DNA of 64,000 nt from assembly GCF_057098645.1 (NCBI RefSeq), contig NZ_CM169472.1; one strand, written 5' to 3'. Positions 46,640-60,243 of the stretch are shown here, piece after piece. Made by a program: the position numbers and the translations under genes. The notes beneath the pieces are model-generated. The model searched no databases, was not told the DNA's origin, and worked only from the letters and a program-made list of their open reading frames with translations. Numbering within the stretch: position 1 is the stretch's first letter; each line of letters begins with the position of its first letter.

Positions 46640-47388
46640 AGCGCCAGTGCCAACGTTTTATCATCATCGGTACGCTCGTTTACCGCCGGGCTCGACAAAA
46701 ACTGCTTTAACAATTCAGGTAATAAATCGAGTTGTTCCTGCGTTGCTGCCGCCAGTCCATTGAAAAACGGGGTAAAGAAAGGCACATGCGGAGAATTATC
46801 CAGCATATTTAACGCCAGTCGCTGAATACCATCCGTAAATGCTGCAACTTTATGCGCACGCTCAGTGCTGGTGAAAGTTTCCAGTCTGGAAACAGCATCT
46901 TCATCGCTAATGAAATGCGTCATATTGGCATATTCACCCACCATCGGCGTGAGCAGCAGTTCCAGACCACGACCAAAATCCACCACTACACCGCCGTCGC
47001 CAATTTGCATAATCAATGTGCCGTTAGCCGATGAAATCAATCCCAGAAACGTGCAGGCAAAATCGCGAACTGCTAATGCTTTGGCTTCTGCCTCGGCAAA
47101 AAGTCGTTGACGAATGGTCAGTACCATATTTGTGGCGAGGACATCATTAAGCCCCAATTCACCGTCCTGTACTTTTTGCACCATAAACGCCATCGCTTCA
47201 TTGACGGCGAGCTTCGCGCCTTCTCCTCCCTGCGAAACGCTACCTGCGCCATCAGCAAGGAACATCACCAGTAATGGCTGCTGGTCATTTAGCCAGGCAA
47301 CCTGCATCTGGCAGGCATCCTGACAAGGTAAATCAGCGCTAATGTGCGACGTTCCAACAGCGGATGCATAAACCAGACGCCAGCTCAC
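46627..47388 (-). CDS. pphC: PP2C-like Ser/Thr phosphatase PphC (YegK)
   Basis: 253 aa; conserved position between yegL and yegI with overlapping start/stop codons. Confidence 0.82.
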
Positions 47389-48044
47389 ACTGACGTCCAG
47401 CCTTTTGGCGCTTCCAGCACAACTTCCGTTCCCGGCGTGGAGCGGGAAACCGAACGCAGTGAACTGGATAACCAGCTAAACAGTTCGCGGAATTGTAATC
47501 CCTGCAGAGACAAAGGCTGACGGACGCTGATTTGGGCCAGCGTCTTCATATCCGCCCCCTGAACACCGATGGAAAAGAAGGCAAACTTCTTATCTTCTTC
47601 CCCCTGAAACACTTTGTTGGCGGCAGCCTGCCACTCATCGGTTGGAGCGCCATCGGTGATCAGGAAAATCCACGGGCGATAATACGAAATACCATTTGCA
47701 CGATACTCACGTTTCCGCTCCTCTACCATATCCAGGGCTTTGGTAATGGCGGCACCCATTGGTGTATCGCCCTGGGCAAACAGAATGGGCGGGAAAAAAT
47801 TAGCGGCGCTGGTAAAGGGTTGTTCCACATGCACCGGGCCGAACGTCACAATACCAAGTTCCACTCTTTTTAAGGCCAGCGGGTCGGCAAGCAGCTCATC
47901 GCGAAAGGTAACCAATCCGGCGTTAAGTTCATTAATGGGTCTACCGTTCATCGAACCAGAAACATCCAGCAGCAAAATGCAGGGGCAACGTGGTTCCGGG
48001 TTACTGGCAAAATCGCTGGTGGCAAACGTGATTTGTTCGCTCAT
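47385..48044 (-). CDS. yegL: von Willebrand factor A (TerY-like) domain protein YegL
   Basis: 219 aa; MIDAS motif DVSGSM near the N-terminus. Confidence 0.85.
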
Positions 48045-48225
48045 AAGAAATCCTTTCTTAGAGAATTATTGAGGTCCGGTATCATACCGATTGCAATAAT
48101 GAAATAAGAGCAAACGAAGAAACTTTCAGAATTAGGCCCGGCGGCGCAGAAAATTTTGCTATTCGCCTCGCAAGAACGGAGAGCCGTCGATTGACACTAA
48201 GGGCGGAGTGACATAATTACAGGAG

Positions 48226-48376
48226 TGAGGGTTAGGGAGAAGTTTCCCCCTCCCCCTGGTGTTCTTAGTAAGCCTGGAAGCTAATCACTAAGAGTATCAC
48301 CAGTATGATGACGTGCTTCATCATAACCCTTTCCTTATTTAAAAGCCCTCTTCTCCGGGAGAGGGTTCCCCGTTTT
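48226..48376 (+). ncRNA. sibA: Sib antisense sRNA, copy 1 (sibA-like antitoxin RNA); ends approximate
   Basis: Sigma70-like promoter (TTGACA 48191-48196, 17-bp spacer, TAATTA 48214-48219); fully antisense to ibsA; hairpin 48346-48365 followed by a T-rich run. Confidence 0.7.
48265..48324 (-). CDS. ibsA: Type I toxin peptide IbsA (19 aa, MMKHVIILVILLVISFQAY)
   Basis: Translated directly from the minus strand; matches my recollection of K-12 IbsA (from memory, not searched); too short to appear in the ORF track. Confidence 0.85.
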   Translation of the reverse strand: MMKHVIILVILLVISFQAY

Positions 48377-48561
48377 AGCGTCCCGCTGAAATCGTCGGCT
48401 TACCTCCTTTCGCCCTGAATGCAGTCTATCGCTGACTTGCGGATAAAATAGTTTCAAGTGTGATTATTGCGTAACGACTCGCAAAGAATATTTGCTGGCA
48501 GGATCGCAGACTGCAAAGCCTGCAGATTGACAATCTTATCGTGAAGGCATACTTTCAGGAG

Positions 48562-48705
48562 TGAGGGTAGAGCGGGGTTTCCCCCGCCCTGGTAGTCTTA
48601 GTAAGCGGGGAAGCTTATGACTAAGAGCACCACGATGATGAGTAGCTTCATCATGACCCTTTCCTTATTTAAGGCCCCTTCCTCGGGAGGGGCTTTCCCG
48701 TTTCA
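48562..48705 (+). ncRNA. sibB: Sib antisense sRNA, copy 2 (sibB-like); ends approximate
   Basis: Promoter TTGACA 48527-48532 / TACTTT 48550-48555; antisense to ibsB; terminator hairpin about 48674-48693 then T-rich run. Confidence 0.7.
48598..48654 (-). CDS. ibsB: Type I toxin peptide IbsB (18 aa, MMKLLIIVVLLVISFPAY)
   Basis: Translated directly from the minus strand; matches my recollection of K-12 IbsB (from memory, not searched). Confidence 0.85.
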   Translation of the reverse strand: MMKLLIIVVLLVISFPAY

Positions 48706-48889
48706 GCGTCCCGCTGAAATCTTCGGCTTACCTCCTTTCGCCCTGTATGCAGTCTATCGCTGACTTGCGGATAAAATAGTTTCAAGTGTGATTATTGCGT
48801 AACGACTCGCAAAGAATATTTGCTGGCAGGATCGCAGACTGCAAAGCCTGCAGATTGACAATCTTATCGTGAAGGCATACTTTCAGGAG

Positions 48890-49033
48890 TGAGGGTAGAG
48901 CGGGGTTTCCCCCGCCCTGGTAGTCTTAGTATGCTGGGTAGCTAATCACTAAGAGCACCACGATGATGAGTATCTTCATCATGACCCTTTCCTTATTTAT
49001 GGCCCCTTCCTCGGGAGGGGCTTTCCCGTTTCA
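48890..49033 (+). ncRNA. Sib antisense sRNA, copy 3 (third tandem module); ends approximate
   Basis: Promoter TTGACA 48855-48860 / TACTTT 48878-48883, identical to copy 2; terminator hairpin about 49003-49022. Confidence 0.65.
48926..48982 (-). CDS. Ibs-family type I toxin peptide, third copy (18 aa, MMKILIIVVLLVISYPAY)
   Basis: Translated directly; differs from the copy-2 peptide at positions 4 and 15 (L to I, F to Y). Confidence 0.75.
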   Translation of the reverse strand: MMKILIIVVLLVISYPAY

Positions 49034-49189
49034 GCGTCCCGCTGAAATCGTCGGCTTACCTCCTTTCGCCATGCAAGCAGTCTATCGCTAACGCGTAGAT
49101 AAAATAGTTTCCTGTGTTATTACTGGATGCGTGCTCGCAAATGTGCCCGCCATTCAGACGATTCCCGATAGTGTTTCATAATTCCTCCA

Positions 49190-49207
49190 TTTTTCTCCCT
49201 TATTGGC
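49190..49207 (+). promoter_or_regulatory. BaeR box upstream of mdtA
   Basis: tttttctcccttattggc matches 17 of 18 positions of the BaeR consensus TTTTTCTCCATDATTGGC as I remember it; about 55 bp upstream of the mdtA ATG. Confidence 0.7.
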
Positions 49208-49260
49208 TGGCTACACTAGTATCATTCCGCGAAACGTTTCAGGAAGAGAAACTCTTAACG

Positions 49261-50508
49261 ATGAAAGGCAGTTATAAATCCCGTTGGGTAATCGTAATCG
49301 TGGTGGTTATCGCCGCCATCGCCGCATTCTGGTTCTGGCAAGGCCGCAATGACTCCCAGAGTGCAGCCCCAGGGGCGACGAAACAAGCGCAGCAATCGCC
49401 AGCGGGTGGTCGCCGTGGTATGCGTTCCGGCCCATTAGCCCCGGTTCAGGCGGCGACCGCCGTAGAACAGGCAGTTCCGCGTTACCTCACCGGGCTTGGC
49501 ACCATTACCGCTGCTAACACCGTTACGGTGCGCAGCCGCGTAGATGGTCAGTTGATGGCGTTACATTTCCAGGAAGGCCAGCAGGTCAAAGCAGGCGATT
49601 TACTGGCAGAAATTGACCCCAGCCAGTTCAAAGTTGCATTAGCACAAGCCCAGGGCCAACTGGCAAAAGATAAAGCCACGCTTGCCAACGCCCGCCGTGA
49701 CCTGGCGCGTTATCAACAACTGGTAAAAACCAATCTCGTATCTCGTCAGGAACTGGATGCCCAACAAGCGCTGGTCAGTGAAACCGAAGGCACCATTAAG
49801 GCTGATGAAGCAAGCGTCGCCAGCGCACAGCTGCAACTCGACTGGAGCCGCATCACCGCACCAGTCGATGGTCGCGTTGGTCTCAAGCAGGTTGATGTTG
49901 GTAACCAAATCTCCAGTGGTGATACCACCGGAATTGTGGTGATCACCCAGACGCATCCTATCGATTTGCTCTTTACCCTGCCGGAAAGCGATATCGCTAC
50001 CGTTGTGCAGGCGCAAAAAGCCGGAAAACCGCTGGTGGTAGAAGCCTGGGATCGCACCAACTCGAAGAAATTAAGTGAAGGCACGCTGTTAAGTCTCGAT
50101 AACCAAATCGATGCCACTACCGGTACGATTAAAGTGAAAGCACGCTTTAATAATCAGGATGATGCGCTGTTTCCCAATCAGTTTGTTAACGCGCGCATGT
50201 TAGTCGACACCGAACAAAACGCCGTAGTGATCCCAACAGCCGCCCTGCAAATGGGCAATGAAGGCCATTTTGTCTGGGTGCTGAATAGCGAAAACAAGGT
50301 CAGCAAACATCTGGTGACGCCGGGCATTCAGGACAGTCAGAAAGTGGTGATCCGCGCAGGTATTTCTGCGGGCGATCGCGTGGTGACAGACGGCATTGAT
50401 CGCCTGACCGAAGGGGCGAAAGTGGAAGTGGTGGAAGCCCAGAGCGCCACCACTCCGGAAGAGAAAGCCACCAGCCGCGAATACGCGAAAAAAGGAGCAC
50501 GCTCCTGA
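49261..50508 (+). CDS. mdtA: Multidrug efflux RND membrane-fusion protein MdtA
   Basis: 415 aa from ATG 49261 ([16 protein letters not shown]...); the track ORF is an in-frame upstream extension. Confidence 0.95.
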
Positions 50509-56708: not shown

Positions 56709-58124
56709 ATGACAGATCTTCCCGACAGCACCCGTTGGCAATTGTGGATTGTGGCTTTCGGCTTCTTTATGCAGTCGCTGGACACCACCATCGTAAACAC
56801 CGCCCTTCCCTCAATGGCGCAAAGCCTCGGGGAAAGTCCGTTGCATATGCACATGGTCATTGTCTCTTATGTGCTGACCGTGGCGGTGATGCTGCCCGCC
56901 AGCGGCTGGCTGGCGGACAAAGTCGGCGTGCGCAATATTTTCTTTACCGCCATCGTGCTGTTTACTCTCGGTTCACTGTTTTGCGCGCTTTCCGGCACGC
57001 TGAACGAACTGTTGCTGGCACGCGCGTTACAGGGCGTTGGCGGCGCGATGATGGTGCCGGTCGGCAGATTGACGGTGATGAAAATCGTACCGCGCGAGCA
57101 ATATATGGCGGCGATGACCTTTGTCACGTTACCCGGTCAGGTCGGTCCGCTGCTCGGTCCGGCGCTCGGCGGTCTGCTGGTGGAGTACGCATCGTGGCAC
57201 TGGATCTTTTTGATCAACATTCCGGTGGGGATTATCGGTGCGATCGCCACATTGCTGTTAATGCCAAACTACACCATGCAGACGCGGCGCTTTGATCTCT
57301 CCGGATTTTTATTGCTGGCGGTTGGCATGGCGGTATTAACCCTGGCGCTGGACGGCAGTAAAGGTACAGGTTTATCGCCGCTGACGATTGCAGGCCTGGT
57401 CGCAGTTGGCGTGGTGGCACTGGTGCTTTATCTGCTGCACGCCAGAAATAACAACCGTGCCCTGTTCAGTCTGAAACTGTTCCGTACTCGTACCTTTTCG
57501 CTGGGCCTGGCGGGGAGCTTTGCCGGACGTATTGGCAGTGGCATGTTGCCCTTTATGACACCGGTTTTCCTGCAAATTGGCCTCGGTTTCTCGCCGTTTC
57601 ATGCCGGACTGATGATGATCCCGATGGTGCTTGGCAGCATGGGAATGAAGCGAATTGTGGTACAGGTGGTGAATCGCTTTGGTTATCGTCGGGTACTGGT
57701 AGCGACCACGCTGGGTCTGTCGCTGGTCACCCTGTTGTTTATGACTACCGCCCTGCTGGGCTGGTACTACGTTTTGCCGTTCGTCCTGTTTTTACAAGGG
57801 ATGGTCAACTCGACGCGTTTCTCCTCCATGAACACCCTGACGCTGAAAGATCTCCCGGACAATCTGGCGAGCAGCGGCAACAGCCTGCTGTCGATGATTA
57901 TGCAATTGTCGATGAGTATCGGCGTCACTATCGCCGGGCTGTTGCTGGGACTTTTTGGTTCACAGCATGTCAGCGTCGACAGCGGCACCACACAAACCGT
58001 CTTTATGTACACCTGGCTTAGCATGGCGTTGATCATCGCCCTTCCGGCGTTCATCTTTGCCAGAGTGCCGAACGATACGCATCAAAATGTAGCTATTTCG
58101 CGGCGAAAAAGGAGCGCGCAATGA
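56709..58124 (+). CDS. mdtD: MFS transporter MdtD
   Basis: 471 aa; 14-TM MFS-like. Confidence 0.93.
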
Positions 58125-59524
58125 AGTTCTGGCGACCCGGTATTACCGGCAAACTGTTTCTGGCGATTTTCGCCACCTGCATTGTCTTGCTGATCAGTAT
58201 GCACTGGGCGGTGCGTATCAGTTTTGAGCGTGGCTTTATTGATTACATCAAGCATGGTAATGAACAGCGATTACAACTGTTAAGTGATGCGCTTGGCGAG
58301 CAGTATGCGCAGCATGGCAACTGGCGCTTCCTGCGCAACAATGATCGCTTTGTCTTTCAGATCCTGCGTTCATTTGAACACGATAATTCGGAAGATAAAC
58401 CCGGCCCGGGTATGCCACCGCACGGCTGGCGTACCCAGTTCTGGGTGGTTGATCAAAACAACAAAGTGCTGGTTGGTCCGCGAGCGCCGATTCCACCTGA
58501 CGGTACACGGCGACCCATTCTGGTCAACGGTGCGGAAGTTGGCGCGGTGATCGCCTCCCCCGTTGAGCGGTTAACGCGCAATACTGATATCAATTTCGAT
58601 AAACAACAGCGGCAAACCAGCTGGTTGATTGTCGCCCTGGCAACGTTACTCGCGGCACTTGCCACTTTTCTGCTGGCGCGCGGTTTACTGGCACCGGTAA
58701 AACGACTTGTCGATGGCACGCACAAACTGGCGGCGGGCGATTTCACTACCCGCGTAACGCCCACCAGTGAAGATGAACTGGGCAAACTGGCGCAAGACTT
58801 CAACCAGCTTGCCAGCACACTGGAGAAAAACCAGCAAATGCGGCGCGATTTTATGGCCGATATTTCTCACGAACTGCGTACGCCATTAGCGGTGCTGCGC
58901 GGTGAACTGGAAGCCATTCAGGATGGCGTGCGTAAATTCACGCCGGAGACGGTGGCGTCTTTACAGGCGGAGGTCGGTACACTGACCAAACTGGTTGACG
59001 ATCTCCATCAGTTGTCGATGTCTGATGAAGGCGCTCTCGCCTATCAAAAAGCACCGGTAGATTTGATCCCACTGCTGGAAGTGGCGGGCGGCGCATTTCG
59101 CGAACGATTCGCCAGTCGTGGCCTGAAACTGCAATTTTCCCTGCCAGACAGTATTACCGTATTTGGCGATCGCGACCGTTTAATGCAGTTATTCAATAAC
59201 TTACTGGAAAACAGCCTGCGCTACACTGACAGCGGCGGCAGCCTGCAAATCTCTGCCGGGCAGCGCGACAAAACGGTGCGCCTGACCTTTGCCGACAGTG
59301 CGCCAGGTGTCAGTGACGATCAGCTACAAAAATTGTTTGAACGTTTTTATCGCACCGAAGGTTCCCGCAACCGTGCCAGCGGCGGTTCCGGGCTGGGGCT
59401 GGCGATTTGCCTGAACATTGTTGAAGCACATAATGGTCGCATTATTGCTGCCCATTCGCCTTTTGGCGGGGTAAGCATTACAGTAGAGTTACCGCTGGAA
59501 CGGGATTTACAGAGAGAAGTATGA
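58121..59524 (+). CDS. baeS: Envelope-stress sensor histidine kinase BaeS
   Basis: 467 aa; H-box SHELRTPL; HATPase region; 4-nt overlap with mdtD. Confidence 0.95.
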
Positions 59525-60243
59525 CCGAGTTACCAATCGACGAAAACACACCGCGTATTTTGATCGTGGAAGATGAACCGAAGCTGGGGCAGTTGCTCAT
59601 TGATTATCTGCGTGCTGCGAGCTATGCGCCGACGCTTATCAGCCACGGCGATCAGGTACTGCCGTATGTGCGCCAGACACCACCGGATCTGATCCTGTTA
59701 GATCTGATGCTCCCTGGCACCGATGGCCTGACGCTGTGCCGGGAAATTCGTCGTTTTTCTGACATTCCGATCGTGATGGTGACGGCAAAAATCGAAGAGA
59801 TCGATCGCCTGCTGGGGCTGGAGATTGGCGCAGATGATTATATCTGTAAGCCGTACAGCCCACGGGAAGTGGTAGCGCGCGTCAAAACCATTTTGCGCCG
59901 TTGCAAACCGCAGCGCGAGTTGCAGCAACAGGATGCTGAAAGCCCGTTGATTATCGACGAAGGTCGTTTTCAGGCTTCATGGCGCGGTAAAATGCTTGAC
60001 CTGACGCCTGCGGAATTTCGTCTGCTGAAAACGCTCTCTCACGAACCAGGAAAAGTGTTCTCCCGCGAGCAATTGCTCAATCATCTTTATGACGACTACC
60101 GCGTAGTAACCGACCGCACCATCGACAGCCACATTAAAAACCTGCGCCGCAAGCTGGAATCTCTCGACGCCGAACAGTCATTTATCCGCGCCGTTTATGG
60201 CGTCGGTTACCGCTGGGAAGCCGACGCCTGCCGCATCGTTTAG
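59521..60243 (+). CDS. baeR: OmpR-family response regulator BaeR
   Basis: 240 aa; receiver domain plus winged-helix; 4-nt overlap with baeS. Confidence 0.95.

Follow-up and report, generated by a model that had tools for sequence, protein, structure and literature searches.

The junction between an array of Sib/Ibs toxin-antitoxin units and the efflux gene mdtA carries a BaeR box, raising the question of what this box controls and of whether it ties its two neighbors together. We addressed this question in a stretch of 64,000 nucleotides from contig NZ_CM169472.1 of NCBI RefSeq assembly GCF_057098645.1 (the whole stretch is referred to here as the window), which carries the yegL/sib-ibs/mdtABCD-baeSR region of Escherichia coli. 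A preliminary description of the window, based on the DNA letters and their open reading frames (ORFs), had pointed to the box as lying directly downstream of the array and had considered two kinds of coupling conceivable, namely, read-through from the Sib promoters into mdtABCD and BaeR-dependent effects on the adjacent toxin-antitoxin module.

The genes on either side of the array are readily assigned. In the ORF list, yegL occupies 47385 to 48044 on the minus strand, and mdtA, the first gene of the mdtABCD-baeSR operon, occupies 49261 to 50508 on the plus strand; the 415-aa mdtA product scored 722 bits against the NCBIfam MdtA/MuxA model (NF008589), for which the cutoff is 391. The operon is closed by baeS (58121 to 59524, plus strand; 930 bits against the NCBIfam BaeS model) and baeR (59521 to 60243, plus strand; 450.5 bits against the NCBIfam BaeR model), both scoring above the respective cutoffs and together representing the cognate two-component system. 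BaeR also matched the NCBIfam PhoB and OmpR models, with scores below their cutoffs, as expected of a paralogue. The mechanical ORF list additionally starts mdtA at a GTG at 49114 (49114 to 50508, 464 aa), a reading that spans the whole promoter and that we rejected as an artifact, as homology begins at the ATG at 49261.

Of 5426 complete E. coli genomes, 5419 contain a match to positions 47900 to 49400, the highest identity being 99.2%, in the avian strain STE15. An identity of at least 99% was reached by only 4 of the 5422 E. coli records that matched, and the species representative nearest by MdtA (99%) was "Escherichia sp. E1V33". The window may originate from a less sampled Escherichia lineage.

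The BaeR box upstream of mdtA

The published BaeR consensus, TTTTTCTCCATDATTGGC, has a single match in the window, the 18-mer TTTTTCTCCCTTATTGGC at 49190 to 49207 on the plus strand, which agrees with it at 17 of 18 positions (the mismatch being C for A at position 10), just as the preliminary description had reported. No match with one mismatch or fewer was seen in 100 dinucleotide shuffles of the window, and the expectation for matches with up to three mismatches was 0.24. The 17-of-18 score is nevertheless circular, since the mdtA site is among those from which the consensus was derived: the three founding sites in K-12, those of mdtA (TTTTTCTCCCTTATTGGC), spy (TTTTTCTCCATAATTGGC), and acrD (TTTTTCTCCACGATTGGC), reduce exactly to the published consensus, and the lone mismatch is mdtA's own deviation from it. 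Reports of BaeR sites are limited to those of spy, mdt-bae, acrD, and ycaC (PMC2731931). The placement of the box had likewise been described closely. It is separated from the mdtA ATG at 49261 by 53 nt (given earlier as about 55 bp) and begins 164 nt past 49026, the equivalent of the annotated 3' end of K-12 SibB (given earlier as about 160 bp from the terminator of the third Sib unit), or 168 nt past the hairpin at 49001 to 49022.

Window positions were related to K-12 by subtracting 2104755 from NC_000913.3 coordinates, an offset verified via the mdtA start and the flanking sequences in the K-12 Term-seq table. Between 48990 and 49300, the window and K-12 MG1655 align without gaps over 311 bp at 99% identity; the box is identical, and three point differences (49149, 49166, and 49169) are located upstream of it. 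The wet-lab evidence for a BaeR site at mdtA comes entirely from K-12, in which two BaeR ChIP-exo peaks fall within this segment. One of them, peak_5 (2153931 to 2153967; window 49176 to 49212), brackets the box, and the other, peak_6 (2153972 to 2153998; window 49217 to 49243), spans the −10 and start region (PMC7657598, Data Set S2). In 5% ethanol, deletion of baeR in K-12 changed mdtA expression by a log2 fold change of −4.0, i.e., a 16-fold drop, whereas the value without ethanol was 0.07, indicating that basal mdtA expression is BaeR independent (PMC7657598). Of 5417 E. coli records, 5266 have the 68-bp core under the two ChIP-exo peaks without any change, and the others match it at 95% or more.

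A chance match without function, in favor of which nothing can be cited beyond the circularity of the consensus, is refuted by the shuffles, by the identity of the box with the K-12 site bound in ChIP-exo, and by the near-invariance of the box region across E. coli. The box is identical to a site occupied in vivo and lies upstream of a BaeR-activated operon that includes the regulator itself, and we are confident that the motif is the already known, textbook BaeR site of the mdtABCD-baeSR promoter rather than a new one. Of the earlier interpretation, the assignment of the sequence as the BaeR box of mdtA therefore stands, given K-12 identity, ChIP-exo occupancy, and the 16-fold effect of baeR deletion; its other part, the coupling to Sib/Ibs, fared poorly, for the reasons set out below.

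Architecture and conservation of the mdtA promoter

For a view beyond E. coli, 80 mdtA loci were fetched from species representatives of the Enterobacteriaceae and aligned from −125 to the ATG; with the window counted, the set comprised 79 unique sequences. Conservation begins abruptly at about 49153 and is organized in blocks on the plus strand. The first is TCAGAC (49154 to 49159; exact in 49 of 79 sequences), followed by a conserved GACAGT-like motif (about 49166 to 49172; no exact count) and by GTTTCATAWTTCCTCCATTTTT (49173 to 49194), whose core, TCCTCCAT at 49183 to 49190, is exact in 72 of 79. After a variable stretch that is not conserved (49195 to 49210) come TAAACT or TACACT (49212 to 49217; 78 of 79), AGTATCAT (49218 to 49225; exact in 69 of 79), and TTCAGGA (49238 to 49244; 78 of 79).

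The first two blocks make up a conserved upstream element of the form TCAGAC-N(6-7)-GACAGT-like (49153 to 49172, plus strand). In the comparison with K-12, the same segment is a perfect CAGAC-N5-CAGAC direct repeat in that strain, and the second CAGAC copy of the window carries two substitutions (CCGAT at 49165 to 49169). In every genus, the element precedes the BaeR repeats. The sole sigma-70-like match returned by a promoter scan, TTCAGA-18-CATAAT at 49153 to 49182, also begins here; its reading as a vestigial fourth Sib promoter was rejected, as no homology to the Sib units extends past 49142 and the block is conserved in genera without Sib. A CpxR box (GTAAA-N5-GTAAA) was absent from 48990 to 49265 at up to two mismatches, and a paper on CpxR in Salmonella gives no E. 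coli mdtA site.

Two-thirds of the published box, at its 3' side, fall within the variable stretch. Outside Escherichia, this part (CTCCC...ATTGGC) shows only partial conservation, in Citrobacter: CTCCC is retained by just 19 of 79 sequences, from Escherichia and Citrobacter, and ATTGGC is essentially confined to Escherichia. Ten base pairs upstream of the published box lies a distal BaeR-like box, AATTCCTCCATTTTTCTC (49180 to 49197, plus strand), which is also inside the peak_5 equivalent at 49176 to 49212. The distal core TCCTCCAT is followed by a −10-like TAMAMT hexamer at a fixed spacing of 29 bp in 78 of 79 sequences, although the sequence in between is variable; in the window, this hexamer, TACACT, starts at +22 from the start of the published box and at +32 from that of AATTCCTCCATTTTTCTC. 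Conservation and spacing thus suggest that the deeply conserved, geometry-equivalent BaeR copy is the distal rather than the proximal one, and the functionally dominant BaeR site of mdtA may be that at 49180 to 49197 instead of the published 18-mer. The ChIP-exo data are neutral in this regard, as peak_5 spans both copies and does not discriminate between them. Overall, the region appears to consist of tandem BaeR-type repeats with a periodicity of 10 to 11 bp, starting at 49173, 49184, and 49194, an arrangement that would fit a dimer or oligomer of an OmpR/PhoB-family regulator.

Downstream of the repeats, the near-invariant block TACACTAGTATCAT (49212 to 49225, plus strand; TAAACT in most genera) is overlapped by the peak_6 equivalent at 49217 to 49243 and offers three candidate −10 hexamers, TACACT (49212 to 49217), TAGTAT (49217 to 49222), and TATCAT (49220 to 49225). 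Judged from the sequence, a position suitable for activation would fit both the location of these candidates and the spacing that is constant in 78 of 79 sequences. The list of transcription start sites (TSSs) of Kim 2012 contains no start at the mdtA promoter, and the genome-wide supplements of SMRT-Cappable-seq and Cappable-seq contain no entry for an mdtA start.

Site identity with K-12, in vivo occupancy by BaeR in K-12, BaeR-dependent induction, and conservation are the data on which we base a model of mdtA activation. Upon envelope stress, phosphorylated BaeR (59521 to 60243), an OmpR/PhoB-type response regulator, would bind the tandem 10- to 11-bp repeats, comprising GTTTCATAA at 49173, the distal core TCCTCCAT at 49183 to 49190, and the proximal, published box at 49190 to 49207. 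These repeats would reach from just upstream into the −35 position of a promoter that has no good −35 hexamer. BaeR would recruit RNA polymerase to the TACACT/TATCAT −10 block at 49212 to 49225, thereby activating its own genes along with the pump operon. The Sib/Ibs array upstream would be an independent module, with Sib transcripts ending at their own terminators. In this model, we infer the register of the repeats, the copy that matters most, the −10 hexamer, the TSS, and a class II-like mode of activation.

The Sib/Ibs array and its relation to mdtA

Three full-length SIB_RNA copies (Rfam RF00113) are present on the plus strand, in agreement with the earlier mention of a third Sib unit, and their scores of 141 to 145 bits far exceed the Rfam gathering score of 56. 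Unit 1 extends from 48191 to 48339 (Rfam span including the TTGACA promoter; 144.9 bits), unit 2 from 48527 to 48669 (142 bits), and unit 3 from 48855 to 49026 (Rfam span, 48855 to 48997; 140.8 bits), with its TTGACA promoter hexamer at 48855 to 48860. Each unit combines the SIB_RNA match with an antisense, hydrophobic ibs ORF of 18 to 19 codons on the minus strand, consistent with a type I toxin-antitoxin system; the ORFs are located at 48265 to 48324 in unit 1 (found by script; encoding MMKHVIILVILLVISFQAY), 48598 to 48654 in unit 2 (encoding MMKLLIIVVLLVISFPAY), and 48926 to 48982 in unit 3 (encoding MMKILIIVVLLVISYPAY), the latter two peptides being read from translations.

For unit 3, the TSS of K-12 SibB corresponds to window position 48891 (TSS table, PMC3415461), and the annotated full-length 3' end of K-12 SibB corresponds to 49026. 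In the RNA fold, a closed multistem structure ending in CCUU (48994) is followed by hairpin P7 and then by a small third hairpin. The terminator (49001 to 49033, plus strand) consists of P7, a perfect 9-bp G+C-rich hairpin (49001 to 49022) that has been named the terminator stem (PMC2943612), and the tail TTCCCGTTTC. Sib RNAs occur in two forms, the shorter of which possibly arises by RNase III processing (review, PMC4147584). The ibs promoter core of unit 3 is located at 49072 to 49084 on the minus strand, with a TAGACT −10 hexamer at 49084 to 49079, in a region identical to K-12; the K-12 ibsB TSS at 2151851 (minus strand), represented by only 3 reads, corresponds to 49072 (PMC3415461, Table S1). 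Homology of unit 3 to units 1 and 2 stops at about 49141 to 49142, according to the unit alignment and a repeat search (49003 to 49141).

The window carries three Sib/Ibs units versus two in K-12, and other complete E. coli genomes carry four or, in one strain, have IS421 between units. In every E. coli arrangement compared, 279 bp separate the start codon of the last ibs gene from the mdtA ATG; since the junction is constant, changes in copy number occur upstream of a fixed junction.

The ibs gene of unit 3 and mdtA are divergent, with about 140 bp between the ibs TSS equivalent and the mdtA −10 block. With this geometry, BaeR bound at 49173 to 49207 could also modulate the ibs promoter of the last unit (TSS at about 49072, 110 to 135 bp away), thereby linking envelope stress to the toxin. 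Escherichia, Citrobacter, Pseudocitrobacter, and Yokenella share this arrangement along with its spacing (the Kluyvera unit lies at a different distance), and putative, unpublished transcription factor sites upstream of other ibs promoters have been mentioned (PMC2943612). However, sibB and ibsB are missing from all supplementary tables of the BaeR regulon study in K-12, in which small genes may have gone unscored (PMC7657598); the homology common to the Sib/Ibs units ends at 49142, marking a self-contained unit that excludes the BaeR site; and the BaeR region is just as conserved in loci without ibs. We therefore regard control of ibs by BaeR as very unlikely, and the suggestion of a BaeR effect on the toxin-antitoxin module gains little from these data.

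The second form of coupling would run in the opposite direction: transcripts from the strong Sib promoters would partly pass their terminators, cross the BaeR region, and enter mdtA, supplying a BaeR-independent basal level of expression that is limited by Rho. In several genera, Sib and mdtA share a strand and keep a conserved distance from each other, and the BaeR independence of unstimulated mdtA expression is compatible with such a source. A weak or absent terminator between Sib and mdtA is not what we found, as the closing stem and a U-rich stretch are followed by the perfect 9-bp GC hairpin, and K-12 Term-seq data show how few transcripts get past it. The SibB 3' end maps to window position 48994 with 487,446 and 491,701 reads in two table entries, and the next 3' end on the plus strand, at 2153897 (window 49142), has 789 and 1217 reads (PMC7815308). 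Its location 148 nt past the major SibB end implies that some transcripts do pass the terminator, but it amounts to only 0.16 to 0.25% of the SibB 3' end and still lies upstream of the mdtA promoter; of the listed K-12 3' ends in the Sib region, more than 99.7% are at the end of Sib itself, and the list has no further one between the 49142 equivalent and mdtA (PMC7815308). The minor end coincides with the repeat boundary, 11 bp before the conserved mdtA block, and no intrinsic terminator is evident there, the fold of 49046 to 49160 being no better than that of shuffled sequence (z = −0.5).

Besides this minor 3' end, the K-12 observation that bears on a transcript spanning Sib and mdtA is a Rho-dependent termination region called on the plus strand; its best coordinate, 2154517, falls roughly 500 nt inside mdtA (window about 49762). 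Upstream/downstream coverage was 1386/20 without bicyclomycin and 1315/139 with it, a 7-fold downstream rise (PMC7815308). This bicyclomycin sensitivity would agree with Rho-limited read-through, but the Rho score uses 800-nt windows that include SibB, and the Rho-sensitive transcripts may accordingly reflect premature termination either of basal mdtA transcription or of Sib read-through.

A further point in favor of read-through comes from the TSS table of Kim et al., in which mdtA is given a 646-nt leader starting at a 5' end within SibA (207 reads). This end corresponds to about 48250, in unit 1 of the window, and second 5' ends are also present inside SibA (+47) and SibB (+18). The 5' ends inside SibA and SibB are probably processing sites, which could mislead operon annotation, and the 646-nt "mdtA leader" is an automatic nearest-gene assignment of one such probable site. 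Genera lacking Sib have retained the same promoter at mdtA, and the 16-fold induction of mdtA is BaeR dependent. Read-through into mdtABCD, which had been raised as a possibility at the outset, is accordingly little supported by the K-12 3' ends and the comparison among genera, and we consider it quite unlikely as a source of mdtA expression.

The gene order itself extends beyond E. coli. By BLAST, a Sib unit on the mdtA strand was found upstream of mdtA in 34 of the 80 loci, and Rfam, applied to 20 loci, confirmed an upstream Sib in 12. The Rfam Sib model ends 261 to 265 bp before the mdtA ATG in Escherichia, Citrobacter, Pseudocitrobacter, and Yokenella; the distances are 273 and 306 bp in two further Enterobacteriaceae and 239 and 366 bp in Kluyvera. 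No Sib was detected upstream of mdtA in the Rfam-tested loci of Enterobacter, Klebsiella, Raoultella, Atlantibacter, Cedecea, and Buttiauxella or, by BLAST, in those of Lelliottia. Apparent Sib remnants are located upstream of mdtA in Trabulsiella and in one metagenome-assembled genome (MAG). A literature search for sibB together with mdtA returned nothing relevant.

The mdtA promoter blocks are equally conserved in genera with and without an upstream Sib, and the size of the array varies (two, three, or four units, or IS421 between units) while the junction stays fixed; for these reasons, we judge the two units to be independent and conclude that the Sib/Ibs-mdtA adjacency is an old synteny of two autonomous modules. 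A reading in which the gene order is kept by a regulatory link, either BaeR control of the last ibs or Rho-limited Sib read-through, appears unlikely to us, as does, separately, a dominant role of the distal BaeR copy.

Comparison with known systems

The observation reidentifies a textbook regulatory site of an E. coli multidrug efflux operon beside a known toxin-antitoxin repeat. The conservation of the distal copy could be used to refine BaeR motif models for regulon prediction in other genera. Should a link be demonstrated between envelope stress signaling and the Ibs toxin, or between basal expression of the pump and read-through from Sib, it would be moderately interesting to those working on small RNAs and on the regulation of efflux.

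The closest counterpart is the mdtA (yegM) promoter of K-12, which resembles that of the window in the 18-mer, its distance from the ATG, the flanking sequences, the 279-bp ibs-mdtA junction, and the downstream operon including baeSR. The K-12 locus differs in having two Sib/Ibs units rather than three and at the positions equivalent to 49149, 49166, and 49169, two of which are in the CAGAC repeat. As for the neighboring array, the SibA/SibB locus between yegL and mdtA is the same in location, orientation, and RNA family, with a copy number that varies among E. coli strains; the array is a neighbor of the BaeR site and not a part of it.

Among the other members of the BaeR regulon, the K-12 spy and acrD boxes have in common with mdtA the sequence TTTTTCTCC...ATTGGC, an extra CTCC repeat 10 to 22 bp upstream, and a downstream TACA(C/G)T hexamer. 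In spy and acrD, this hexamer is at +32 from the start of the box, whereas in mdtA it is at +22 from the published box and at +32 from the distal copy. Based on these spacings, mdtA therefore appears to carry two BaeR copies one helical turn apart. A similar layout is known from class II sites of the PhoB/OmpR type, such as the pho box, in which, as apparently in mdtA, tandem direct repeats with a periodicity of 10 to 11 bp replace a missing −35 hexamer just upstream of a −10 element. The repeat sequence of the pho box is different, and the likeness suggests that BaeR may activate mdtA by a class II-like mechanism.
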